Assembly: GCA_017998915.1 (NCBI GenBank)
Contig: JAGOCE010000136.1
Span: 1-10,015, forward strand
Origin: Candidatus Ozemobacteraceae bacterium
Lineage (GTDB): Bacteria; Muiribacteriota; Ozemobacteria; Ozemobacterales; Ozemobacteraceae
DNA: 10,015 bases
Direction of reading: 5' to 3'
The notes beneath the pieces were generated by a model. That model saw only the letters and a program-made list of their open reading frames with translations, was not told where the DNA came from and did not search any database. This document shows, one piece after another, positions 1 to 10,015 of the stretch (positions are counted from its first letter, which is position 1; every line of letters begins with the position of its first letter). Position numbers and translations under genes: made by a program.

Positions 1-1
1 G

Positions 2-391
2 ACGTGCATCGACGAAACAGCCCGCCGGCGCGAGATCCAGGATCGGTACAACAGGGAACATGGCATCGAGCCAGCCTCGATCGTGAAGAAGCTGCCGAAG
101 ATCTTTCTCCCCGGCCAGGAAGGCGGCGAACAGGGGGCAGGCGGTAAAATCGACCAGGATCGCCTTGCCGAACTGGTCAGAGAGCTCCAGGCCGAGATGG
201 ACAAGGCCGCCCGCGAGCTTCAGTTCGAGCGCGCCGCGATGATCCGTGACGAGATCATCGCCCTCCAGGACGAGCATCTCGAAGCCGATGTCCTCATGGG
301 CCTCGGAAAAGCGCTCCGCTCCGGCCGCGACAGAAGCATGGCCAAGAAACGCAACTCCCGACGCTCCCGTTCCCCGCAGAAACCGGGCTGA
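2..391 (+). CDS. uvrB: Excinuclease ABC subunit B (UvrB), C-terminal fragment including the UVR domain; 5' end lies outside the window
   Basis: Frame-2 translation from position 2 reads TCIDETARRREIQDRYNREHGIEPASIVKK..., matching the conserved UvrB C-terminus (RRRE.Q..YN.EHGITP). It is followed by a UVR-domain-like helix, ELQAEMDKAARELQFERAAMIRDEIIALQ. Stop codon at 389-391, followed by a G/C hairpin. Confidence 0.85.
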   Translation, partial: TCIDETARRREIQDRYNREHGIEPASIVKKLPKIFLPGQEGGEQGAGGKIDQDRLAELVRELQAEMDKAARELQFERAAMIRDEIIALQDEHLEADVLMGLGKALRSGRDRSMAKKRNSRRSRSPQKPG

Positions 392-408
392 TATCCCCCC
401 GAACGAAC

Positions 409-437
409 GCCGGGGCGGGTTTGAAGCCCGCCCCGGC
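409..437. terminator. Perfect 11-bp G/C stem (GCCGGGGCGGG / CCCGCCCCGGC) with a 7-nt loop, between convergent uvrB (+) and the 454..1083 (-) gene. Likely a bidirectional intrinsic terminator without a U-tract, as is common in high-GC genomes
   Basis: Inverted repeat read directly: 409-419 gccggggcggg, loop tttgaag, 427-437 cccgccccggc. It sits 18 nt after the uvrB stop and 17 nt after the minus-strand gene stop. Confidence 0.55.
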
Positions 438-453
438 GCGTGGTGTCGGGAGA

Positions 454-1083
454 TCAGCGAGTCGGTTTGAGGGGTTTGTTGAACACGTCGAAGGGAATGT
501 CTTCCTTCAGCTCGGTTCGCAGGAACGTGAGAATGTCCATCGAGAGGGAACGCATCTTCTCGCTGTCGGTCCAAAACAGCTCGAACACGACACGTTCGGC
601 CTCTTTGCGCAGAGCAGCGAGGTTCGTCGAGTGGTGGTTGATCTTCAGGTTCTCGATGTGCGAGGCGATCTTGTAAAACTCGGCGCTGATCAGCTCGGGA
701 CCTTCGGGTGAATCATCGAATCCCTTCGGGAAGTTTGGATACTTCTCGCAAAATTCTATTTCAGCCGCTATATGGCGAAACAACGCGGGTTTGTCCTCGA
801 GACCCATCCGGACAGCCAGCAAGTGAGCCGCGACAACCCGGGGATCGTCGTTCTTCTTCGCATACTGGAGCGCGGCCACGAGGTCGTTGATGCCGGCATA
901 CGCCGAGTTGATCGAGCCGCAGGTATACAGCATCTTCTTGAGAACGACCTGTTTCGTGAGCTGGTACGGATCACGATGCAGTGCCGCAAACTCGGGGGTC
1001 ACCGCCCCGGCGGGCGCCTCAAATGACAATGCGAACACCATGACGAAGATTCCGACCATCGACGCAATCGCTCGTTTACCCAT
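454..1083 (-). CDS. Hypothetical secreted protein with an N-terminal signal peptide (MGKRAIASMVGIFVMVFALSFEAPAGA). The longest ORF extends to 1149
   Basis: Minus-strand ORF with high GC3 over most of its length. The textbook n/h/c signal-peptide arrangement begins at the internal Met (ATG at 1083-1081). The 22 codons upstream of that Met have GC3 of only about 50%, versus about 74% downstream, so 1083 is the favoured start. No recognisable family. Confidence 0.55.
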   Translation of the reverse strand: MGKRAIASMVGIFVMVFALSFEAPAGAVTPEFAALHRDPYQLTKQVVLKKMLYTCGSINSAYAGINDLVAALQYAKKNDDPRVVAAHLLAVRMGLEDKPALFRHIAAEIEFCEKYPNFPKGFDDSPEGPELISAEFYKIASHIENLKINHHSTNLAALRKEAERVVFELFWTDSEKMRSLSMDILTFLRTELKEDIPFDVFNKPLKPTR

Positions 1084-1161
1084 GTATGCATTGTACACAC
1101 CAATGCCCTGATTGGCAACCCGCCCACCAATCCGTCCAAAGACGCTCATGGTCGTGAGCGC

Positions 1162-2211
1162 CTATGGCAACGGCTTGTGGGGATTCGAGGCGTGGTCGAC
1201 GAGACGATCGAGTTCGGAACGGAGTTTTCGGAGTTCCTCGACGCGCCCGTTGAGAACGAGATACTGGAAATTCGGGTTTCGGAAGATTTCCATCTTCCGG
1301 AAATCCGGCTCGAGAAACCACCCTTCCGTCAGACGCTGGATCAACATGTTTGCAGGAGCAATCAGAAGAGCGACCGCAAAAGAAGGAAGAATCTGGGCCC
1401 ACCAGGAAGTTTCGTCGATATACTTCTGAAGATCGTTCTGGAGAATGTTTTCGACAGTTTTATACAGAGCCGCCGTTCCCAGGGTCAACAGCATGTAATA
1501 CACTCCGGTGCCGATGACCACGTCGATATCGATCAGCTTGAATCGCATCGTGGCGTACACCACGATGATCATGAACGCGAGAGTCGCCAACTCGACGATC
1601 GGGAACTCGAACACCCAGAAGATCTGATGCCTCAACAGCATGTCGTGAAGGGCGCACAGGCAGTAAAATGCTTCGCCGAGCAGGATGAACTCCACCCTGC
1701 GGCGCATCATCTCGTCCTCGTGCGTCAGGCGCGCTTTGACGAGCCGGTATGCAATCCGTATCAGGAGCACGCCCATGACGAAGGCATACGCCTTCATGAG
1801 CGGCCCGCCGATCGCCAGCGGGCCGTCGGGCGTCATTTCGAGTCCCGATCGGAAAATCATCTCGGTCGGCAATGCCGCGAGGAACACGGCGGTCGCAGCC
1901 CATGCGAGCCCCCGCGTCCTCTTGTTCGCGTATCTGCCTTCGAGAACGGCATCTGGAAACTCGGCCAGCAAGGGAATCAGCAGGATCGTGCCTATCCATC
2001 CGGCTCGCACGAACCAGATCGTCGGCAGAACAAAAAACAGCACCTGGAAGACGTTGTACAGCATCGATGCCGTCGCGATGCCCGCAATGACGCGGTTAAC
2101 CGGCTGGTGTCGAGCCCGCGCCAGGACGAACCAGGCCACGAGCCCCGAAATGCCGGCCGAGATCATCGACGTGGCCAAGCGCAGGGTGGGTGTCAGCACG
2201 ATATCTTCCAT
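1162..2211 (-). CDS. Polytopic inner-membrane protein with about 8-9 predicted TM helices and an approximately 70-aa charged, coiled-coil-like cytoplasmic tail. Function unknown, possibly a sensor or transporter-like protein
   Basis: ORF 1162..2307. The preferred start is Met33 (MEDIVLTPTL...), preceded by GGAGG 7 nt upstream (reverse complement of 2212-2225: ggaggaatggcATG). There are multiple hydrophobic segments of about 20 aa each. The tail reads ...RVEELRKLRSELDRLVDHASNPHKPLP. The + strand antisense ORF 1177..2370 translates to a low-complexity D/E/H/R-rich sequence and is rejected. Confidence 0.75.
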   Translation of the reverse strand: MEDIVLTPTLRLATSMISAGISGLVAWFVLARARHQPVNRVIAGIATASMLYNVFQVLFFVLPTIWFVRAGWIGTILLIPLLAEFPDAVLEGRYANKRTRGLAWAATAVFLAALPTEMIFRSGLEMTPDGPLAIGGPLMKAYAFVMGVLLIRIAYRLVKARLTHEDEMMRRRVEFILLGEAFYCLCALHDMLLRHQIFWVFEFPIVELATLAFMIIVVYATMRFKLIDIDVVIGTGVYYMLLTLGTAALYKTVENILQNDLQKYIDETSWWAQILPSFAVALLIAPANMLIQRLTEGWFLEPDFRKMEIFRNPNFQYLVLNGRVEELRKLRSELDRLVDHASNPHKPLP

Positions 2212-2295
2212 GCCATTCCTCCGGGCCCATCTAAGCACGAGTGGCTCTCTCCGTGCAACAAGACGGATACGGTTCGGCACCGATTTTTCCGGGGC

Positions 2296-2324
2296 TTGCC
2301 AAGGCATACGACATGTGGTATGTT
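2296..2324 (+). promoter_or_regulatory. Candidate sigma70-type promoter, TTGCCA-17 bp-TATGTT, with a second TTGACA hexamer at 2341-2346. Predicted transcription start near 2331
   Basis: Read directly: 2296-2301 ttgcca, 17-bp spacer, 2319-2324 tatgtt. It lies in an approximately 330-bp region of lower GC between divergent genes. Confidence 0.35.
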
Positions 2325-2565
2325 TCTAGTAGAGGCTGGTTTGACAATCATGTCCCTGCGCTGTCCGTGATGATGCAGGTTTAATTGAGCCGACACCTGT
2401 ATCTAGAGGGAATCTGTCTTCAACCCCCGCTGAGATCCCCTTACGAACAGGATCACTCCTGTTACGAAGACCTCATTGTGAGGCTGAGCAGACAACCGTT
2501 TACCGCGAGGTTAGGGTTCAATTGTCCTTCACACGGCAGAGGCGGGGGCCTACCCGCACCTCAAC

Positions 2566-2601
2566 GAAGCCGCCGGTAGTTTTCCGGCGGCTTCGTCTTT
2601 T
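2566..2601 (+). terminator. Rho-independent terminator on the + strand. Perfect 11-bp stem GAAGCCGCCGG / CCGGCGGCTTC, loop tagtttt, then GTCTTTT
   Basis: Inverted repeat 2566-2576 / 2584-2594 followed by the T-rich tract 2595-2601. On the opposite strand the hairpin is not followed by a T-run, so it is orientated for + strand transcripts, 40-90 nt upstream of the next + ORF. Confidence 0.6.
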
Positions 2602-2643
2602 CCCACGGTCCATGGCTCCCGAGGCGCGAGATACCGGTAATTT

Positions 2644-3747
2644 TTGTTCTGGGTGTTGCCTTTCGCCGTCCAGGTGGGTATATTTACCCCCATCATGAAG
2701 GCACGCCCTCTTCTCATCGCATCCGAAACGCTCAAAGCCGCCGATCTCATTGCTCCGCCCTTCGGACTCGAGCCCGAAGAGTTCATGCTGACCAGACTCG
2801 AGTCTCTGAATGTGATGGGGTTTGCGCGTTTCGCCGCCGTCGTGATTCATGAACCGCCTGCCGACCTGTTTCGCAGGTTGTCCCTCGGACTCCGCGACCG
2901 CCCTGATGCTGAAGCGCTCTGGTCACTTATTTCGCAGGCTCGATCCGTACCAGTTTACGTGCTGTCAGCCAAGATAGAGCGCCCCCCCACGGAACTTTCC
3001 GATCTCGGCATCGGTACAACCTTGCCCCAGCGACTTCGCGAACTGTGCGCCACGCCCGCAGCCTTCGCGCTTGACGGTTCCGGACCTTCGGTTTCCGCCG
3101 CTTCTTTGCTGACCGCCGATGATGTACGGGCCATGCATCTGAAGGGTGTGAAGACGCTCGACGAGAACACCCCGATGACCGACTGGGCCAGGGAAACGGC
3201 GACCGCGCTCGGCATCAGGCTCACGCCGGCAGCTTCCCGCCGCGTTCTGATTCCCGTCGAAGCCCGGGGCGTCAGGCACCTGGCGAGCTTCGGCGAGCTT
3301 TTGCACGGTTTCGCATCGTTCCCGCTCGCGCCGCTGTTCGTCGTTGCGGAGCCCCTCATGCCGGCGTTCAACGAGCTTTTCCCGTCGCTGCGCGGCAGGC
3401 TCGTCGCGCCAAGCATCCACTGGGAGAAACAGGGCGCCTTCACGGGTGAAATATCACTTGCTATGGCGCTCGATCTCGGGTGCGAGGGTGCGATCGTCCC
3501 CGATCTGCCGGCGTATGCTGAGCCGAAGCGATTCGCGCAGTTGTGCGCCGCCGCGGCTGGAAAGCAGTTTTCGCTTTATGTGCCCTCCCCCCTTGCCGCC
3601 CGGGATTGTTGTGCTATAATTGGCAACCGGATCTTCCGGCTCACGGATGGCCGGGGCCGCTCCGCATCGGAGCTGCCGAAAGACGGAGCCCTCATCATGA
3701 AGGGCTGCGAACTCGAGAAGATTGTCCAGGAAAGGAACAAGCCGTGA
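2644..3747 (+). CDS. Hypothetical protein whose C-terminal half carries a degenerate triosephosphate isomerase (TIM)-like segment. Possibly a decaying or pseudogenised TIM-family gene of the BMC locus. The start is uncertain (TTG 2644 or ATG 2695)
   Basis: Residues about 199-285 (nt 3238-3498) read RRVLIPVEARG...APLFVVAEPLMPAFNELFPSL...VAPSIHWEKQGAFTGEISLAMALDLGCEGAIV. This is co-linear with the TIM N-terminal region (KFFVGGNWKMNG...VVCAPP.AY...GAQN..K..GAFTGEIS..ML.D.G...V.LGHSERR). However, the catalytic N/K (GNWK) and H (GHSERR) positions are replaced (PVEA; PDLPAY) and the protein ends well short of a full barrel. GC3 is about 80% in the middle of the ORF but only about 65% at both ends, versus about 80% in neighbouring genes. 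A consensus extended -10 promoter lies inside the last 150 nt. The stop overlaps the pduL GTG start (GTGA). Confidence 0.4.
   Translation: MFWVLPFAVQVGIFTPIMKARPLLIASETLKAADLIAPPFGLEPEEFMLTRLESLNVMGFARFAAVVIHEPPADLFRRLSLGLRDRPDAEALWSLISQARSVPVYVLSAKIERPPTELSDLGIGTTLPQRLRELCATPAAFALDGSGPSVSAASLLTADDVRAMHLKGVKTLDENTPMTDWARETATALGIRLTPAASRRVLIPVEARGVRHLASFGELLHGFASFPLAPLFVVAEPLMPAFNELFPSLRGRLVAPSIHWEKQGAFTGEISLAMALDLGCEGAIVPDLPAYAEPKRFAQLCAAAAGKQFSLYVPSPLAARDCCAIIGNRIFRLTDGRGRSASELPKDGALIMKGCELEKIVQERNKP
3593..3620 (+). promoter_or_regulatory. Near-consensus sigma70 promoter, TTGCCG-16 bp-TGcTATAAT (extended -10). It probably drives the BMC operon from about 3627, giving an approximately 117-nt leader before pduL
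   Basis: Read directly: 3593-3598 ttgccg; 3612-3620 tgctataat (TGnTATAAT). The region is locally AT-enriched within otherwise 65% GC DNA. Confidence 0.5.
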
Positions 3748-4388
3748 TCGACGAAGCCAATGTCAAGACCATCGTAGCCGAAGTGCTCAAGCACATCGAT
3801 CTCCAGGAACGCATCCGCCCCGGAACCGTTCCAGCCGGCGTCAGCGGCCGCCACATCCACGTCTCCCAGGCCGATCTCGAAACCCTGTTCGGGGCCGGGT
3901 ATCAGCTCAAGGAAATGAAGAAGCTTTCCCAGCCCGGCCAGTTCGCGGCTGAAGAGTGCGTCATGCTCGTCGGCCGCAAGGGTGTCATCGAGAAGTGCCG
4001 CATCCTCGGGCCGGTCCGGCCGGCGACGCAGATCGAGATTTCCGGCACCGACAGCTTCACGCTCGGCGTGCCGATCGTCTATCGCGACTCGGGCGACACC
4101 AAGGGGACCCCCGGCGTCATCGTCGTCGGCCCAAAGGGCCACGTGGTATTGAAAGAAGGCATCATCGTCGCCAACCGCCACGTGCACCTCAGCACGAAGG
4201 AAGCCGAGAAGATGGGCCTGAAGGACATGGACCGGGTCACGGTCAAGACACAGGGTCCGCGCGCGATCGCGTTCCAGAACGTTCTGGTGCGCGTCAGCGA
4301 CAAGTTCGCCGCCGATTTCCACGTCGACAACGACGAGGGGAACGCCGCCGGCCTCAAAACGGGTGATATGGTCGAGATCGTCCGCTGA
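3744..4388 (+). CDS. pduL: PduL-type phosphotransacylase (phosphate acyltransferase, EutD/PduL family) with an N-terminal encapsulation-peptide-like amphipathic helix
   Basis: Two PduL repeat signatures: ...VSGRHIHVSQADLETLFG... and ...VANRHVHLSTKEAEKMGL.... The GTG start at 3744 is preceded by AGGAA (3731-3735) and overlaps the upstream TGA. The N-terminus, VIDEANVKTIVAEVLKHIDLQE, resembles BMC encapsulation peptides. Length of about 214 aa is typical for PduL. Confidence 0.88.
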   Translation: MIDEANVKTIVAEVLKHIDLQERIRPGTVPAGVSGRHIHVSQADLETLFGAGYQLKEMKKLSQPGQFAAEECVMLVGRKGVIEKCRILGPVRPATQIEISGTDSFTLGVPIVYRDSGDTKGTPGVIVVGPKGHVVLKEGIIVANRHVHLSTKEAEKMGLKDMDRVTVKTQGPRAIAFQNVLVRVSDKFAADFHVDNDEGNAAGLKTGDMVEIVR

Positions 4389-4466
4389 TCACGACCACCA
4401 CATAGGTTTTAGGTTTTTCGACACACGGTACACATTTCTGACAAGCCAAAATCTCAGGAGGACGTC

Positions 4467-4763
4467 ATGCAGGAAGCTCTGGGTATGATCGAAACCAAAG
4501 GTCTGACCGCTCTTATCGAAGCCACCGACGCGATGGTCAAAGCCGCCAACGTGAAGCTCGTCGGCTGGGAAAAAATCGGTTCCGGGTATGTGACCGCCTT
4601 CGTGCGCGGTGATGTCGCCGCCGTCAAAGCCGCCACCGACGCCGGTGCCGCCGCCGCCAAGAAGATCGGCGAGCTGATCTGCGTCCACGTGATTCCGCGG
4701 CCGCACGGCAACCTCGATGAGGTCATGCCGATCCGCGACAACACCCAGACCTCCAAGAAGTAA
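4467..4763 (+). CDS. BMC-H hexameric shell protein (Pfam00936; PduA/CcmK/EutM-like)
   Basis: The N-terminus, [33 protein letters not shown], is near-identical in pattern to PduA/EutM. AGGAGGA RBS at 4455-4461. 98 aa. Confidence 0.95.
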
Positions 4764-4783
4764 TCCGGGGAAATCGTCGAGTC

Positions 4784-5065
4784 ATGAATCTCGGTCGAGT
4801 CTGCGGAACCGTCGTCTGCACGCGAAAAGAAGAGCGGCTCAACGGCATGAAGTTTCTGATCGTCGAGGAACTGACGATCGAGCGCAAGCCGACGGGCCAC
4901 TTCGTCGTCGCCGTGGACGCGGTCAGCGCCGGAGCGGGCGAAACCGTACTGCTGGTCAGCGGCAGCTCGGCTCGCCTCACCGAGCGCACCCTGAACTGCC
5001 CGGTCGACGCAGCCGTCGCGGCCATCGTCGATTCGGTCGTGATGGACCACGAACGCACGACCTGA
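4784..5065 (+). CDS. BMC-P pentameric vertex protein (Pfam03319; EutN/PduN/CcmL-like)
   Basis: MNLGRVCGTVVCTRKEERLNGMKFLIVEEL... matches the EutN/PduN N-terminal pattern (M.IARVIGTVVST.K...L.G.KLL.V). 93 aa. Lies 20 bp downstream of the BMC-H gene. Confidence 0.9.
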   Translation: MNLGRVCGTVVCTRKEERLNGMKFLIVEELTIERKPTGHFVVAVDAVSAGAGETVLLVSGSSARLTERTLNCPVDAAVAAIVDSVVMDHERTT

Positions 5066-5092
5066 CCCCCGGCGGACTCCTTTGATCGATCT

Positions 5093-5129
5093 CCCGGCCC
5101 CGCGCATCGTTTTTCGCGCAGGGGCCGGG
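5093..5129 (+). other. Intercistronic G/C-rich stem-loop (CCGGCCCCGCGC / GCGCAGGGGCCGG) with a T-rich loop, between the BMC-P and aldehyde dehydrogenase genes. Possible partial terminator or RNA-processing element
   Basis: Imperfect inverted repeat read directly. No downstream U-tract. Confidence 0.3.
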
Positions 5130-5184
5130 GGTCGTGTGGTCCGCCGGCCATACAGACAGCAAGCCTCACGGCACGGGGGAACGA

Positions 5185-6603
5185 ATGTCCATTTCTCGTG
5201 ATGAGCTGGGCGTCATCGTCCAGGAAGTCCTCAGGAACCTGAAAGCATCCGGCACGGTCGCCACCGCCGTCACGCGGGCGGCGGAGCCTTCGGGCAAAGG
5301 CGTCTTTGAAAATATAGAAGACGCTATTAAGTCAGCCGTCGACGCCCAGAAGAAGCTCGTCGAGCTTCCGGTCGCCCTGCGCAAAAAGATGATCTCGAAC
5401 ATGCGCAGCCGCTGCCTCGCGAAGCTCGAGGAGCTCGCCCGCCTCGGCGTCGAGGACACCGGCTACGGCCGCGTCGATGACAAGCTCCAGAAAAACCGGC
5501 TCGCCATCACGAAGACACCCGGCATCGAAGATCTCCAGCCCGTGTCGTATTCGGGAGACGACGGTCTGACGCTCGTCGAACAGGCCCCTTACGGTGTCAT
5601 CGGGGCCATCACCCCCTCGACCAACCCGTCCGAGACGATCATCTGCAACTCGATCGGCATGATCGCGGCCGGCAACGCCGTCGTGTTCGGCCCCCACCCC
5701 GGCGCAGCGAAGATCAGCCGATTCACCGTCGAACTGCTGAACGAAGCCGTCATCGAGGCGGGCGGACCCGCCAATCTGATGACGATGGCCTCGAAGCCGA
5801 GCATCGAGAACGCGCAGATCCTGATGACCCACCCGTCGATCCGGCTGCTGGTCGTGACCGGCGGCCCCGCCGTGGTCGCCGCCGCCGCCAAGTGCGGCAA
5901 GAAATACATCGCCGCCGGTCCGGGCAACCCGCCCGCCGTCGTCGACGAGACGGCCGACCTGAAAAAAGCCGCGCGCGATATTATATCCGGCGCCACACTC
6001 GACAACAACGTGCTCTGCATCGCCGAGAAGGAAATCATCGTCGTCGAGTCGGTCGCCGAGGAGCTGAAGCGGCATCTGCGCAACAGCGGGGCCTACGAGG
6101 CGTCGGCGCGAGAGATCATCCAGCTCGAGAAGCTGGTGATCGACCCGAAGACAGGCGGCCCGAACCGCAAGTTCGTCGGCAAGAACGCCGGCTACATCCT
6201 CGAGCAGATCGGCGTGCGCGTCCCCGATGACATCCGCATGGTGTTGTGCGAAACGGGCCCCGACCACCCCTTCGTCGTCGAAGAGTTGTTGATGCCGGTC
6301 ATCCCGCTGGTGCGCGTGCGCGACGTGAACGCCGCCATCGATCTGGCCGTCAAGGTCGAGCACGGCAACAATCACACCGCCGTGATGCACAGCCGCAATA
6401 TCGACAACCTTCATCGCATGGCTGTTCGGTGCAACTGCTCGATCTTCGTGAAGAACGGCCCGAGCTATGCCGGCCTGGGAATGGGCGGCGAGGGCTATAC
6501 AACCTTCACGATCGCCTCCCCCACCGGCGAAGGCCTGACCAGCGCCCGCACCTTCACACGCCAGCGTCGCTGCGTCATCGTCGACAGCTTCCGAATCGTT
6601 TGA
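5185..6603 (+). CDS. CoA-acylating aldehyde dehydrogenase (PduP/EutE family) with an N-terminal encapsulation peptide
   Basis: The N-terminus, MSISRDELGVIVQEVLRNLKASG, is amphipathic and encapsulation-peptide-like, followed by a linker. The core motifs CNSIGMIAAGNAVVFGPHP and ...TLDNNVLCIAEKE (catalytic Cys) match EutE/PduP. RBS GGGGGAA before the ATG at 5185. ORF track start 5134 is in frame, but 5185 fits the RBS and the encapsulation-peptide pattern. Confidence 0.92.
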   Translation: MSISRDELGVIVQEVLRNLKASGTVATAVTRAAEPSGKGVFENIEDAIKSAVDAQKKLVELPVALRKKMISNMRSRCLAKLEELARLGVEDTGYGRVDDKLQKNRLAITKTPGIEDLQPVSYSGDDGLTLVEQAPYGVIGAITPSTNPSETIICNSIGMIAAGNAVVFGPHPGAAKISRFTVELLNEAVIEAGGPANLMTMASKPSIENAQILMTHPSIRLLVVTGGPAVVAAAAKCGKKYIAAGPGNPPAVVDETADLKKAARDIISGATLDNNVLCIAEKEIIVVESVAEELKRHLRNSGAYEASAREIIQLEKLVIDPKTGGPNRKFVGKNAGYILEQIGVRVPDDIRMVLCETGPDHPFVVEELLMPVIPLVRVRDVNAAIDLAVKVEHGNNHTAVMHSRNIDNLHRMAVRCNCSIFVKNGPSYAGLGMGGEGYTTFTIASPTGEGLTSARTFTRQRRCVIVDSFRIV

Positions 6604-6610
6604 GACAACA

Positions 6611-6762
6611 CACCACAGAGTCACAGAGACACAGAGGCCCTATTTCTCTCAATCCTGTAGCTCCGCGGTGAATATGATGAAAATCGCAAGATTTACAGCA
6701 GTTCGATCTTTGTATCCTTGTGGTGAATGATCTCTGTGTCTCTTTGCCTCTGTGGTAAACCA
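6611..6762. repeat. Long-range inverted repeat spanning the aldDH-pduS intergenic region: CCACAGAGTCACAGAGACACAGAG (6611-6634) pairs with CTCTGTGTCTCTTTGCCTCTGTGG (6738-6761). It encloses an AT-richer core with promoter-like TTTACA-15 bp-TGTATCCT
   Basis: 22 of 24 positions are complementary between the arms. The right arm contains the motif CTCTGTGTC-n7-CCTCTGTGGTAAA, which is repeated at 8859-8888. Confidence 0.5.
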
Positions 6763-6812
6763 GGGGAAACTCTCACGGACGATTATTGAATACTTCGAAA
6801 CGGATCAGGAAC

Positions 6813-8126
6813 ATGGGTGATATTGCAGTAGCGGAACTTGGGTTGGTGGGGTGCGGGGGCGCGGGATTTCCGACGCATGTGAAGCTTGCGGCGCAGAACG
6901 TCGATCACCTGATCGTGAACGCTGCCGAGTGCGAACCCCTCCTCCACAAGGACAAAGAGATCCTCAAGCACGCAACGGACGAGTTTTTCAAAGGCCTGAT
7001 CCGATCGATCGATCTCACGAGGGCAAAACAGGCGCATATCGCGATGAAGCGCAAATATGCCGATCTGCTTGAAACGCTCGAAAAGGCGATTCCCGACAAG
7101 CGGATATCGATGCTGCCCCTCGGCGACTTTTACCCGTCGGGCGATGAATACGAACTGGTATATGAAGCGAGCGGCCGGCTGATCCCGTTCGGCGGCATTC
7201 CGCTGCACGTCGGGTGCGTCGTCAGCAATGTCGAGACGCTGCTGAACCTCGGCCGCAACCGGCCGGTCACGACGAAGATCCTGAGCCTTGCGGGCGCGGT
7301 TCCCAACCCGATGACCGTCGAAGTGCCCGTCGGCATCACGGTGTTCGAGGCCCTTTCCCTTTCGGGCCTGAAATCGCTCGCCGGCCTGACGGTGATCGAC
7401 GGCGGCCCGATGATGGGGCGGCTCGTGCGCGATCCGCAGACCGATGTCGTCACGAAGACCACCGGCGGCCTGATTGCGCTTCCCAAAGATCATCCCCTGA
7501 TTCGACGGATGGTGACGCCAGAGGCCCACAACAGGCAGATCGCCCGTTCGGCCTGCGACCAGTGCACCGACTGTTCCGAGCTCTGCCCCCGTGCGCTTCT
7601 CGGGTATCCCATTCGGCCGCACAAAGCGATGAGGACAGCCCAGCTTGCCCCGTTCAACGACCAGAATTATTCGCGCGATTCAATCTTCTGCAGCGAGTGC
7701 GGACTCTGTTCGCTGTTTTCCTGCCCCGAAGGCCTGCCGCCGCGTGAGATGTGCCAGATGGCGAAGCGCCACCACCTGTCCCACGGTGTCAAGCCGACCG
7801 ACTGGAAGGACGCTCCGCAGGTTCACCCGATGCGAGGCCAGCGCCGCGTGGGAATCGAACGGCTGATCAAGCGTCTGGGCTTGCTCGATTACGACCACAA
7901 GGCTCCCTGGACAACCATCCAGACACGATTCGAGAGAGTCAGACTGCCGCTGAAGATGCATGTCGGGGTGCCGGCCGAGCCGGTCGTCCGCGTTGGCGAC
8001 ACCGTCAAGGTCGGCCAGTTGATCGGTGCCGTACCCGACAAGAAGCTCGGCGCGCCCGTGCATGCATCGATCAGCGGCCGCGTCACCAGCGTCGATTCCG
8101 GCGCCATCGTCATTTCCAGGGCATGA
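6813..8126 (+). CDS. PduS/RnfC-like Fe-S flavoprotein (NADH dehydrogenase 51-kDa-subunit-like domain plus two 4Fe-4S ferredoxin motifs). BMC-associated oxidoreductase
   Basis: GxGGAGFPTHVK motif (LVGCGGAGFPTHVKL). Two CxxCxxCxxxCP clusters (CDQCTDCSELCP; CSECGLCSLFSCP). AGGAA RBS before the ATG at 6813. The upstream TTG at 6786 is a less likely start. Confidence 0.88.
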   Translation: MGDIAVAELGLVGCGGAGFPTHVKLAAQNVDHLIVNAAECEPLLHKDKEILKHATDEFFKGLIRSIDLTRAKQAHIAMKRKYADLLETLEKAIPDKRISMLPLGDFYPSGDEYELVYEASGRLIPFGGIPLHVGCVVSNVETLLNLGRNRPVTTKILSLAGAVPNPMTVEVPVGITVFEALSLSGLKSLAGLTVIDGGPMMGRLVRDPQTDVVTKTTGGLIALPKDHPLIRRMVTPEAHNRQIARSACDQCTDCSELCPRALLGYPIRPHKAMRTAQLAPFNDQNYSRDSIFCSECGLCSLFSCPEGLPPREMCQMAKRHHLSHGVKPTDWKDAPQVHPMRGQRRVGIERLIKRLGLLDYDHKAPWTTIQTRFERVRLPLKMHVGVPAEPVVRVGDTVKVGQLIGAVPDKKLGAPVHASISGRVTSVDSGAIVISRA

Positions 8127-8159
8127 AGCAGCCCCTGAACCAGAACTGAGAGAACCGCC

Positions 8160-8717
8160 ATGAACATCTCGCAGAATGCCATCGGCCTCGTGGAACTGTC
8201 CAGTATCGCCATGGGCTACCAAACGACCGACGCCATGCTCAAGACCGCATCGGTCGAACTCGTCCTCTCACGCACCATCTGCCCGGGCAAGTTCATCGTC
8301 ATGGTCTGGGGCGATGTGGCGGCCGTCGAGGCGAGCGTCGCCGCAGGCGTTCGCGTCGGCCAGGGGTATCTCGTGAACGATCTCGTCATTCCCAACCTGC
8401 ATCCCCAGATCTACCCGGCGATGACGGCAACCAACCCGATTCCCGAGACGGATGCGCTGGGCGTCGTCGAGACGTTCGACGTCGTCTCGACGATCCTCGC
8501 GGCCGATGCATCGGCCAAGGCTGCCGACGTGCAGCTCGTCGAGATCCGCATTGCAATGGCGATCGGCGGCAAGGCGTTCTACACGATGACCGGCGACGTC
8601 GCCGCCGTCGAAGCCGCCGTGGCGTCAGGGCTGAACGTGCTCGAGGGCCGCGGCCAGGTCGTCTACAGCGTCGTCATCCCGCGCCCCCGCCCCGAACTCT
8701 TCCGCGAGTTCATTTGA
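8160..8717 (+). CDS. BMC-T tandem-domain shell protein (two Pfam00936 domains; PduT-like)
   Basis: Two BMC-domain repeats: IGLVELSSIAMGYQTTDAMLKTASVELV... and LGVVETFDVVSTILAADASAKAADVQLV.... 185 aa. Confidence 0.9.
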   Translation: MNISQNAIGLVELSSIAMGYQTTDAMLKTASVELVLSRTICPGKFIVMVWGDVAAVEASVAAGVRVGQGYLVNDLVIPNLHPQIYPAMTATNPIPETDALGVVETFDVVSTILAADASAKAADVQLVEIRIAMAIGGKAFYTMTGDVAAVEAAVASGLNVLEGRGQVVYSVVIPRPRPELFREFI

Positions 8718-8768
8718 GAGACACAACGGGAACAGCTTCAGCACAGAGAACACAAAGAGCACTGAGTT

Positions 8769-8888
8769 CTCACAGAGAACCGCTGTTTTCTGGTAATAGT
8801 CTTAATGCTGTATAATATAAACTTTACTTATACAAGCGGTTGTTTTTCTCTGTGAAACCTCTGTGTCCATTGTGTCCTCTGTGGTAAA
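8769..8888. repeat. Second copy of the intergenic element (BMC-T to rpiB spacer): CACAGAG repeats after the stop, an AT-rich core containing TGTATAAT, and the motif CTCTGTGTC-n10-CCTCTGTGGTAAA at 8859-8888
   Basis: The motif is shared with 6731-6759. Partial inverted complementarity exists between CACAGAGAACCGCT (8771-8784) and AGCGGTTGTTTTTCTCTGTG (8835-8854). Confidence 0.45.
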
Positions 8889-8926
8889 GTTTTTGGTGCT
8901 CGAAATTGCATTTGATGGAGATGGGT

Positions 8927-9391
8927 ATGCCGAAGATCGTGATTGGGGCTGATCATGGCGGGTTTCCGCTCAAGGAGGAGCTGAAGAAGCACCTGGCTAC
9001 GGCCGGCCACACGGTCGAGGACGTCGGCGCCTTTTCGACCGATCCGGTCGATTATCCCGATATCGCCTGGCTCGTGGCCAACGCGGTCGCGATGAATCCG
9101 CACACGCTCGGCATCGTCATCGACGGGGCGGGCATCGGCTCCTGCATGGCCGCGAACAAGGTCCCCGGCGTGCGGGCTGCCTGCTGCAACGATCTCTACA
9201 CCGCGCGCAACAGCCGCGAGCACAATCACGCGAACTTGCTCACCCTGGGCAGCATGGTGATCGGCCCCGGCTTGATGAAGCAGATCGTCGACCTCTGGAT
9301 CTCCACCCAGCCCGCTCCCGGCCGCCACGCCGCCCGCGTCGCCAAGATCACGCGCCTCGAGTCGCTGGGTGCACCGCCTCAGAAGGTATAA
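8927..9391 (+). CDS. rpiB: Sugar-phosphate isomerase of the RpiB/LacAB family (ribose-5-phosphate isomerase B-like)
   Basis: MPKIVIGADHGGFPLKEEL...GIVIDGAGIGSCMAANKVPGVRAACC...REHNHANLLTLGS...GRHAARV is co-linear with E. coli RpiB (KIAFGCDHVGF...GILICGTGVGISIAANKF.GIRA..C...RQHNDTNVLAFG...GGRHQQRV). GGAG RBS before the ATG at 8927. Confidence 0.88.
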   Translation: MPKIVIGADHGGFPLKEELKKHLATAGHTVEDVGAFSTDPVDYPDIAWLVANAVAMNPHTLGIVIDGAGIGSCMAANKVPGVRAACCNDLYTARNSREHNHANLLTLGSMVIGPGLMKQIVDLWISTQPAPGRHAARVAKITRLESLGAPPQKV

Positions 9392-9484
9392 CTCCTTCCA
9401 ATTTCCTTTTGTGAACAGACTTTCCAGGCGAATTTTCTACGTCTCGGGGAAGAGGTTGCATGAAATGTGGTATCATTTCTTGTG

Positions 9485-9742
9485 ATGCCTACCGTTCTCA
9501 TGATTTACGGCTGGAGATTCTTTTTCTACGCGAACGAGCGCAATGAGCCTATTCATATTCATTGCAAAAGCGGAGACAAGGAATGCAAATACTGGCTCGA
9601 CTGCGACGATTTTGACGCAATTGAAGCCTATTCGTACAATATGAGCCCTTCAGACAAGAGGCTCGTCAAGAAGCTGATTTTCGAATATTTCGAACTCATC
9701 GAGAATTCATGGAAAGAATTTCAAGAGAGAAAGTCTTTATGA
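9485..9742 (+). CDS. DUF4160-family small protein (about 85 aa) in a low-GC island. Function unknown
   Basis: MPTVLMIYGWRFFFYANERNEPIHIHCKSGDKECKYWL matches the DUF4160 hallmark (MPT...GyRFfFYsNE.nEP.HiHv...g.eaKfWL). Local GC is about 42% versus about 65% upstream. Its stop overlaps the next gene start (ATGA). Confidence 0.78.
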   Translation: MPTVLMIYGWRFFFYANERNEPIHIHCKSGDKECKYWLDCDDFDAIEAYSYNMSPSDKRLVKKLIFEYFELIENSWKEFQERKSL

Positions 9743-9999
9743 ATAAGAGTCACATAATCCAGGATGTTCGTTTCACGAACGGAACCATGCAGATCATGAT
9801 CGATGGAAAACCGTATGAGTTCAAGCTCAATGCTGTTTCTTCAAAATTATCTGAAGCCACCGTTGAGCAAAGAAATGCCTTTGAAGTTTCACCTTCGGGT
9901 TATGGCATCCACTGGCCGCTGGTCGATGAAGATCTTTCGATCGACGGGTTATTGAATATTTCCCATGCGCTTCCGGTAAAAAAGACGAAAGCGGCATGA
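9739..9999 (+). CDS. DUF2442-family small protein (about 86 aa), translationally coupled to the DUF4160 gene
   Basis: ...MIDGKPYEFKLNAVSSKL...GYGIHWPLVDEDLSIDGLL matches the DUF2442 C-terminal pattern (I.WP..DeDls.d.L). Its ATG at 9739 overlaps the upstream TGA, with a purine-rich RBS, GAGAGAAAG, before it. The alternative in-frame start at 9709 lies inside the upstream gene. Confidence 0.75.
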   Translation: MNKSHIIQDVRFTNGTMQIMIDGKPYEFKLNAVSSKLSEATVEQRNAFEVSPSGYGIHWPLVDEDLSIDGLLNISHALPVKKTKAA

Positions 10000-10015
10000 A
10001 TCAAGGAGCGAAATA
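9996..10015 (+). CDS. 5' end of a third small gene (MNQGAK...), translationally coupled by a second ATGA overlap. Runs off the window
   Basis: The ATG at 9996 overlaps the TGA at 9997-9999. Only 6 codons are visible. Confidence 0.3.

Follow-up and report, generated by a model that had tools for sequence, protein, structure and literature searches.

What kind of RNA, if any, is encoded by the promoter-to-terminator unit that stands in front of a bacterial microcompartment (BMC) operon in Candidatus Ozemobacteraceae? The unit lies on the forward strand of contig JAGOCE010000136.1 (assembly GCA_017998915.1), whose positions 1 to 10,015 make up the stretch of DNA analysed here, hereafter the window. 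Sequencing run SRR11235434 also yields an assembly of this sequence. An earlier reading of the letters of this stretch (the original prediction) had proposed either a transcription attenuator, such as a riboswitch leader of the operon, or a free-standing small RNA. Comparison with related loci upholds the second option: the unit is very probably a stand-alone 6S RNA (ssrS) gene of Candidatus Ozemobacteraceae, phylum Riflebacteria. 6S RNA, a small RNA common in bacteria, imitates an open promoter and restrains RNA polymerase.

The original prediction had suggested an Rfam covariance-model scan as a check. With gathering thresholds, such a scan of the whole window returned no matches. A permissive scan of 601 nt (2150-2750) with 4227 families gave one strong match, RF00013 (6S / SsrS), which covers 2350-2552 of the forward strand over the full length of the model (model positions 1-187 of 187, 37.1 bits, E 5.9e-6). 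In this alignment, CCCUGCG...GUCCGUG opens the closing stem and ACGGCA...GCGGGG closes the rod; UUGAGCCGA is found directly before the central bubble and GGGUUCAA directly after it on the return strand. The same series of elements, CCCUGC...GUxCGUG...UGAGCCGA on the 5' side and GGGUUCAA...CACGGCA...GCGGGG on the 3' side, is shared with E. coli ssrS and with 6S RNAs of other organisms that score 65-92 bits. Seven weaker matches (P37, Pseudomon-groES, mir-1803, BjrC1505, RcsR1, CrfA and CcsR1, E 0.29-8.5) all overlap the terminator hairpin and were set aside as chance. A search for tRNA and tmRNA genes found none.

In the literature, 6S RNA is defined by a length of ~180-200 nt, a hairpin-like shape and a central, unpaired bubble similar to an open promoter (PMC9130861). 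The RNA of the window is a discrete non-coding element in which a 203-nt core is flanked by a conserved promoter and a conserved terminator, the open reading frame (ORF) that crosses it is not conserved, and the consensus fold and covariation give a rod with a bubble. As in E. coli ssrS (RF00013), an RNA of ~200 nt with its own sigma-70-type promoter is built from a closing stem, an inner helix, an open bubble of ~13/14 nt and an apical arm, with UGAGCCGA placed just before the bubble on the 5' strand. It differs from E. coli ssrS in being only ~42% identical overall and below the gathering score, and in a longer apical arm which ends in a phylum-specific, near-invariant CUUACGA...UACGAAG hairpin. 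By such testable criteria, the RNA is a divergent member of the 6S family and not a new regulatory principle.

The relatives on which the comparison rests were found in three ways, and their loci are given here as L numbers. The product of the first operon gene (350 aa) has homologues labelled Candidatus Ozemobacteraceae by NCBI, and the contigs encoding eight of them were examined. A gap of 450-550 nt upstream of the gene, whose product has a short segment resembling triose-phosphate isomerase (TIM), contains a full-length RF00013 match in all five contigs that hold the gap (L002, 38.2 bits; L003, 37.1; L004/L005, 40.3; L006, 38.0; L013, 35.5). A DNA pattern scan of species-representative genomes returned only 4 loci, including one duplicate, and added L007 (42.0 bits), L009 (44.1) and L010 (44.9), so that the Ozemobacteraceae homologues at the same place (group A) span 35.5-45 bits. 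A metagenome scan with a pattern taken from more universal 6S elements (TGAGCCGA, GGGUUCAA and CACGGCA) yielded 31 loci. These comprise further Ozemobacteraceae, a second group (group B) whose neighbour proteins are named Candidatus Rifleibacterium or Candidatus Riflebacteria, seven loci of a third group (group C), and three chance pattern matches within coding sequence (L021, L028 and L031), which were dropped. Group B scores 38.6-49.1 bits, with L015 (49.1), L029 (47.1) and L037 (47.0) above the gathering score. The seven loci of group C represent six distinct bona fide 6S RNAs of other organisms, at 65-92 bits. The scores thus run continuously from accepted 6S RNAs down to the RNA of the window. 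Its sequence is 63-68% identical to group B (63-66% for the three homologues above gathering) and 39-48% identical to group C.

The alignment of corresponding intergenic regions, also suggested in the original prediction, shows a conserved region with covarying base pairs. On its own, the stretch 2345-2605 folds at -106.5 kcal/mol versus -78.9 +/- 5.2 kcal/mol for dinucleotide shuffles (z = -5.3; 0 of 200 as good) into one long rod followed by a separate terminator hairpin. The consensus fold was obtained with RNAalifold from eight Ozemobacteraceae sequences, and covariation was counted in 30 sequences of groups A, B and C. Across the rod, 88.1% of cells are paired, a share that drops to 40-48% if the 3' partners are shifted by 1-3 columns, and changes on both sides occur in 33 of 65 pairs. 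The covariation score is 0.266; none of 500 shuffles attains it (0.146 +/- 0.006), and the shifted controls give 0.09-0.12. The features of the unit are listed in the table.

Features of the proposed 6S RNA gene and of the adjoining operon promoter (window positions)
Feature	Positions	Strand	Basis
6S RNA (ssrS) core, 203 nt	2350..2552	+	full-length RF00013 match, related-locus matches, covariation
Closing stem, 5' strand	2352..2369	+	pairs with 2532-2549; RNAalifold consensus
Closing stem, 3' strand (CACGGCAGAGGCGGGGGC)	2532..2549	+	RNAalifold consensus, covariation
Inner helix P2 ('downstream duplex'), 5' strand, including UUGAGCC	2371..2391	+	pairs with 2515-2531; predicted template of the product RNA (pRNA)
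P2, 3' strand (GGUUCAAUUGUCCUUCA)	2515..2531	+	rod fold and alternative fold
Central bubble, 5' strand (GACACCUGUAUCU), 13 nt	2392..2404	+	unpaired in consensus fold
Central bubble, 3' strand, 14 nt	2501..2514	+	unpaired in consensus fold
Apical arm ('upstream duplex')	2405..2500	+	RF00013 alignment, covariation
Terminal hairpin of apical arm	2440..2469	+	near-invariant flanks, covarying stem
6S gene promoter, sigma-70-type	2296..2324	+	consensus scan and conservation at constant distance from the RNA
Predicted 5' leader of primary transcript	2331..2349	+	conserved motif in groups A and B
Intrinsic terminator	2564..2601	+	13-bp GC-rich stem, 7-nt loop, CUUUU tail
BMC operon's own promoter, outside the RNA gene	2656..2684	+	TTGCCT-17-TATATT; consensus scan, conserved in close relatives

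The covariation is unevenly distributed along the rod. The closing stem, together with the adjoining base of P2, is 89.8% paired, with changes on both sides in 5 of 19 pairs. The core of P2 (2383-2391/2515-2523), which borders the bubble, is paired to 99.3% and nearly invariant in the set, partly as a result of the search pattern, and compensatory exchanges are found where sequences do differ: group C has U-A in place of A-U at 2383:2523 and 2384:2522, and L013, a locus located through its protein neighbour rather than by pattern, has C-G in place of U-A at 2386:2520. The apical arm exceeds that of the Rfam model in length (a stretch of 52 nt versus 35), and its main helix has changes on both sides in 15 of 18 pairs. 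The internal hairpin which the original prediction had pointed out is present at 2441-2469 (UUACGAACAGGaucacuCCUGUUACGAAG) and forms the end of this arm. CUUACGA (2440-2446) and UACGAAG (2463-2469) are near-invariant, and the stem that they enclose covaries (AGG/CCU to GAG/CUC, GG/CC and others), with changes on both sides in 9 of the 12 pairs of the terminal hairpin helix. The motif is absent from the group C 6S RNAs and from E. coli. A helix of 4 bp (ACCU/AGGU) which RNAfold places within the bubble of the window sequence is missing from the consensus fold and was discarded. The apical hairpin stands ~22 bp plus loops from the bubble, a distance which, speculatively, may fit a '-35-like' contact.

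Several points weigh against the assignment as 6S RNA. The 37.1 bits of the window RNA are below the gathering score of RF00013 (46.4), as are the scores of most relatives. The metagenome search pattern imposed part of the invariance of the bubble region; the Rfam scores, L013 and the Ozemobacteraceae loci found through the neighbour protein are free of this bias, and L013, located independently of the pattern, contains CACGGCA as well. The linkage to the BMC operon is very persistent and is left unexplained by 6S function. Finally, a rod with a bubble is not automatically a 6S RNA, as the Ms1 RNA of Actinobacteria binds core polymerase (PMC9130861). The gathering score, for its part, is a cut-off of the model and not a biological property, and it is exceeded by the three group B homologues named above.

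The last of these points leads to an alternative in which the RNA is derived from 6S or similar to it and acts otherwise: on core polymerase in the manner of Ms1, on a lineage-specific protein through the apical motif, or by base pairing. The score below gathering, the long apical arm and a near-invariant motif that other 6S RNAs lack would suit such a role. Ms1, too, targets RNA polymerase as a long, hairpin-like RNA with a bubble at its centre; it is ~300 nt long, carries additional terminal hairpins at the 5' and 3' ends, binds the core enzyme without sigma and is confined to Actinobacteria (PMC9130861). Unlike Ms1, the RNA of the window has a core of 203 nt and a single rod, belongs to a Riflebacteria host and carries 6S primary-sequence elements. 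Specific binding to the housekeeping holoenzyme is what separates 6S RNA from Ms1 by definition (PMC9130861). The flanks of the E. coli pRNA template are kept nearly letter for letter, with GAGCCGA and the start position on one strand and GGGUUCAA on the other. Moreover, the scores pass without a break from this RNA through relatives above gathering to 6S RNAs of 92 bits, and a second 6S candidate was not seen in the window and relative contig sequence scanned. A divergent function of this kind is therefore improbable, and a genuine 6S RNA remains the preferred interpretation.

The remaining proposals bear on how the unit is transcribed. The promoter TTGCCA-17-TATGTT claimed in the original prediction is present, with its -35 at 2296-2301, a spacer of 17 nt and its -10 at 2319-2324; a TG at 2316-2317 makes it an extended -10 promoter. 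The match alone is not significant, with 6 sites in a consensus scan of the window versus 2.6 +/- 1.6 in shuffles, and the promoter is accepted as real because it is conserved across related loci. CTTGC(C/T)AAG ... TGnTAT(G/T)TT keeps a constant distance from the closing stem in the loci of Ozemobacteraceae and Rifleibacterium. In every such locus with those flanks, the -35, TG and -10 elements and a hairpin/U-run terminator occupy equal relative positions, and promoter and terminator are both retained in ~25 related loci. From the spacing only, transcription is predicted to start near 2331.

The 5' leader that would follow contains the motif GCUnnUUUGA(C/A)AA (2335-2347), located between the -10 and the closing stem and conserved in Ozemobacteraceae and Rifleibacterium. 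The leader is probably either removed by processing or retained as a 5' extension, and the motif may be a processing signal. The TTGACA noted earlier at 2341 does exist (2341-2346), as a part of this transcribed motif; its proposed role as a second promoter was rejected, as no -10-like hexamer follows 16-18 nt downstream. Folds of 11 loci were inspected for pairing of the leader with the 3' trailer that would lengthen the closing stem, and nothing consistent emerged. A pairing of leader GACAA with UUGUC of P2, seen by eye, fails in L003, L009 and the Rifleibacterium group.

At the other end, the perfect 11-bp stem of the predicted terminator (GAAGCCGCCGG at 2566-2576 with CCGGCGGCUUC at 2584-2594) is confirmed and extends to 13 bp (2564-2596); it stands ~240 nt downstream of the promoter. 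A simple terminator scan missed it only because the extended stem leaves 4 U in the 8-nt scoring window. A hairpin with a U run is found 10-25 nt past the closing stem in every related locus whose contig continues beyond the RNA. The arms of this hairpin are wholly unlike between lineages (CGAAGCCGCCGG, AAAACCGCCC, AAACAGCUGUCUC, AAAGCCCGAACUUU and others), whereas the upstream RNA, including its 3' strand, is conserved; hairpins of unrelated sequence at a constant position therefore behave as a terminator and not as an attenuator. This separate, strong terminator distinguishes the RNA from those of group C, which end at the closing stem. Taken together, the extended -10 promoter is predicted to drive a transcript of ~270 nt that ends at the intrinsic terminator. 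In most Ozemobacteraceae copies, the GCGGG of the 3' closing strand can also pair with CCCGC five bases downstream (2543-2556, GCGGGGGCCUACCCGC). Such a small hairpin would form at the expense of the closing stem; L006, L030 and the Rifleibacterium group lack it.

Could the RNA instead be a cis-acting attenuator, whether riboswitch, ANTAR-type or protein-controlled leader, that senses a BMC substrate and controls read-through of the hairpin at 2564-2601? Promoter, structured RNA, terminator and operon do succeed one another on one strand, as in the riboswitch and ANTAR leaders of eut and pdu operons, where a terminator hairpin also lies upstream of a BMC operon. Furthermore, uvrB, the RNA and the BMC operon stand in this order in ~20 independent Riflebacteria loci of two families, Ozemobacteraceae and Rifleibacterium, with the RNA directly upstream of the operon. 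Unlike the eut and pdu leaders, however, the RNA shows no match to a cis-regulatory Rfam family above chance (nothing at gathering, and up to E 10 only chance matches to the terminator hairpin), and it matches 6S RNA end to end. The unrelated terminator arms leave no conserved terminator/antiterminator alternative. A conserved promoter intervenes between the terminator and the ATG, and a read-through transcript would supply the first gene without a Shine-Dalgarno sequence.

This intervening promoter belongs to the BMC operon. Its -10 ends 10 nt before the ATG at 2695, with no Shine-Dalgarno sequence in between (ACCCCCATC, 2656-2697). The arrangement is conserved in L003, L004, L007, L010 and L018, and L006 has an analogous TG-extended -10, TATGAT, which ends 7 nt before the ATG. 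Because its own promoter is situated ~10 nt before the ATG, the operon transcript would have almost no leader, and the mRNA of the first BMC gene looks leaderless or nearly so, judging from these signals.

The RNA and the operon can also be found apart. Inserts of ~0.9-1.2 kb separate them in L014 (2870-4075, ~1.2 kb) and, likewise, in L037. In L022 (952-3198), the 6S gene is followed by mnmA and a DUF1848 gene. In L026 (113-2318), its downstream neighbours are a short pduL that stands alone (193 aa) and a gene for a metalloenzyme-superfamily protein, and the 13 kb examined there showed no shell genes. Conversely, the BMC operon of L011 has a 477-aa gene directly upstream in place of the RNA. 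The comparison thus largely refutes the attenuator, which is left very improbable. As to a small protein, the 64-aa frame at 2385-2579 with its TTG start is open in the window and in the closest relative, but it has a negligible chance of being a gene, as the original prediction had already judged: stops or 1-2-nt indel shifts break it in L003, L004, L006, L007, L010 and nearly all Rifleibacterium, the base pairs and the nucleotide sequence persist in spite of these breaks, and the frame stops within the loop of the terminator hairpin and lacks an evident ribosome-binding site.

For the 6S RNA gene that is thereby preferred, the mode of action is taken over from the established behaviour of E. 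coli and B. subtilis 6S RNA. By this analogy, we infer that the RNA binds RNA polymerase and templates pRNA synthesis. The rod would mimic an open promoter and fill the active-site cleft of the housekeeping sigma-RNA polymerase holoenzyme, and this occupation would damp sigma-70-type transcription under nucleotide scarcity. On outgrowth, the 5' bubble strand would serve the polymerase as template from about C2394 onwards. In E. coli, the pRNA starts at U44, and the alignment places GAGCCGA-U44 of E. coli over GAGCCGA-C2394 of the window. The E. coli sequence used in this alignment agrees at 100% with the annotated ssrS gene of every one of the 5426 complete E. coli genomes. The predicted pRNA would accordingly begin opposite C2394 and read 5'-GUCGGCUCAAUU.... 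Its synthesis would unzip P2, and the freed 3' strand of P2 could re-pair locally, GGUU with AACC (2494-2497) and UCCUUC with GAGGGA (2406-2411). The collapse of the bubble would then release the polymerase.

An RNAalifold analysis of 24 Riflebacteria sequences is of interest in this respect, for it prefers a different arrangement of the central region. This alternative fold contains a 5'-strand hairpin (2372-2380/2395-2403), the helix between GAGGGA 2406-2411 and UCCUUC 2525-2530, and a small hairpin between AACC 2494-2497 and GGUU 2515-2518. In E. coli 6S RNA, the opening of the inner helix by pRNA synthesis brings the P2 3' strand and the 3' bubble strand together in a hairpin; in B. subtilis 6S-1 and Aquifex aeolicus 6S RNA, a central bubble collapse helix (CBCH) joins the distal 5' bubble strand to the P2 3' strand (PMC8876501). 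The last two helices of the alternative fold appear to match these published release rearrangements. As in E. coli, the freed P2 3' strand could pair with the 3' bubble strand in a hairpin, and the predicted GAGGGA/UCCUUC helix has the topology of the CBCH (PMC8876501). Unlike the RNAs of B. subtilis and A. aeolicus, the RNA of the window adds the conserved potential 5'-strand hairpin, and it has no sequence similarity to them beyond the general 6S consensus.

The helices of the alternative fold are 84-94% paired, with few independent substitutions: at 2406:2530, Ozemobacteraceae have G-C, Rifleibacterium A-U and L013 C-G, and pair 2375:2400 is G-U, A-U or U-A. The mapping is not applicable to group C. 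In constrained folding, the alternative lies ~0-7 kcal/mol above the rod in most Riflebacteria sequences (median near 4), with L006 (13.1 kcal/mol) and L013 (10.1 kcal/mol) as outliers. A bistable design of this kind, computational and resting on few independent substitutions, is consistent with the 6S cycle.

The adjacency to the microcompartment genes calls for a separate explanation. In the window, the genes follow one another as the 3' end of uvrB, two opposite-strand genes of unknown function, the 6S gene, the operon and a DUF4160/DUF2442 pair. The operon encodes the TIM-like protein, PduL, BMC-H, EutN, an aldehyde dehydrogenase, an RnfC/Nuo51-like flavoprotein, a tandem-BMC protein and RpiB. 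The succession of uvrB, 6S gene and BMC operon survives insertions on the upstream side, namely ABC transporter genes in L004 (2529-3456) and ~1.8 kb in L009, where the insert lies between the 6S gene (3350-3552) and a membrane-protein gene (from ~5397). Individual lineages have insertions on one or the other side of the 6S gene, which is itself left intact. The neighbours of 6S genes are known to be characteristic of the taxon, as with ygfA in Proteobacteria, and to follow no universal pattern (PMC9130861); unlike in Proteobacteria, uvrB and the BMC operon are the neighbours here, and ygfA is not among the flanking genes found. For this reason, a gene order inherited across the phylum, and not cis-regulation, is the simplest explanation of the adjacency.

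A more far-reaching proposal would treat the 6S gene and the operon as a functional pair, linked by terminator read-through or by growth-phase control, with the apical hairpin as a contact and with selection on the release conformer. As a whole, this is unlikely. If true, BMC expression would be tied to the 6S cycle, either because polymerases partly read through the 6S terminator or through a common growth-phase control, and the CUUACGA/UACGAAG hairpin would be a phylum-specific contact, either a '-35-like' site for sigma region 4 or the site of a dedicated protein partner. The covariation for both the rod and the collapsed bubble would then represent comparative evidence, from uncultivated bacteria, for selection on the release conformer. 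The order of uvrB, 6S gene and BMC operon is, in itself, a curiosity whose functional meaning is here only a possibility.

The assignment extends 6S RNA to a candidate phylum, the uncultivated Riflebacteria; a literature search found no mention of 6S RNA together with Riflebacteria. It gives a name to a conserved and highly structured intergenic element for which Rfam at default thresholds yields no annotation in most Riflebacteria genomes, since the score of the window RNA, like that of most relatives, is below gathering. It also prevents the element from being mistaken for a microcompartment riboswitch. The ~25 diverged sequences could join the RF00013 seed and help to recover such genes. 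For specialists of 6S RNA, the set offers covariation consistent with both the promoter-mimic rod and the collapsed-bubble conformer, and a phylum-specific apical hairpin.

Three further observations concern the surroundings. The first operon gene (2695-3747, 350 aa) encodes a protein of which only residues 233-268 match the triose-phosphate isomerase profile (27 bits), and this TIM-like protein is the product of the first BMC gene across Riflebacteria, at 32-89% identity. In L006, a near-perfect palindromic hairpin at 172-239 matches the model of the animal microRNA mir-499 on both strands (42.8 and 34.7 bits, gathering 60); chance almost certainly explains the match, given a long perfect hairpin, which is possibly a bidirectional terminator. 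After the microcompartment locus of the window, two small genes overlap, DUF4160 at 9467-9742 and DUF2442 at 9709-9999, and resemble the two-gene modules for which a toxin-antitoxin role is often proposed.

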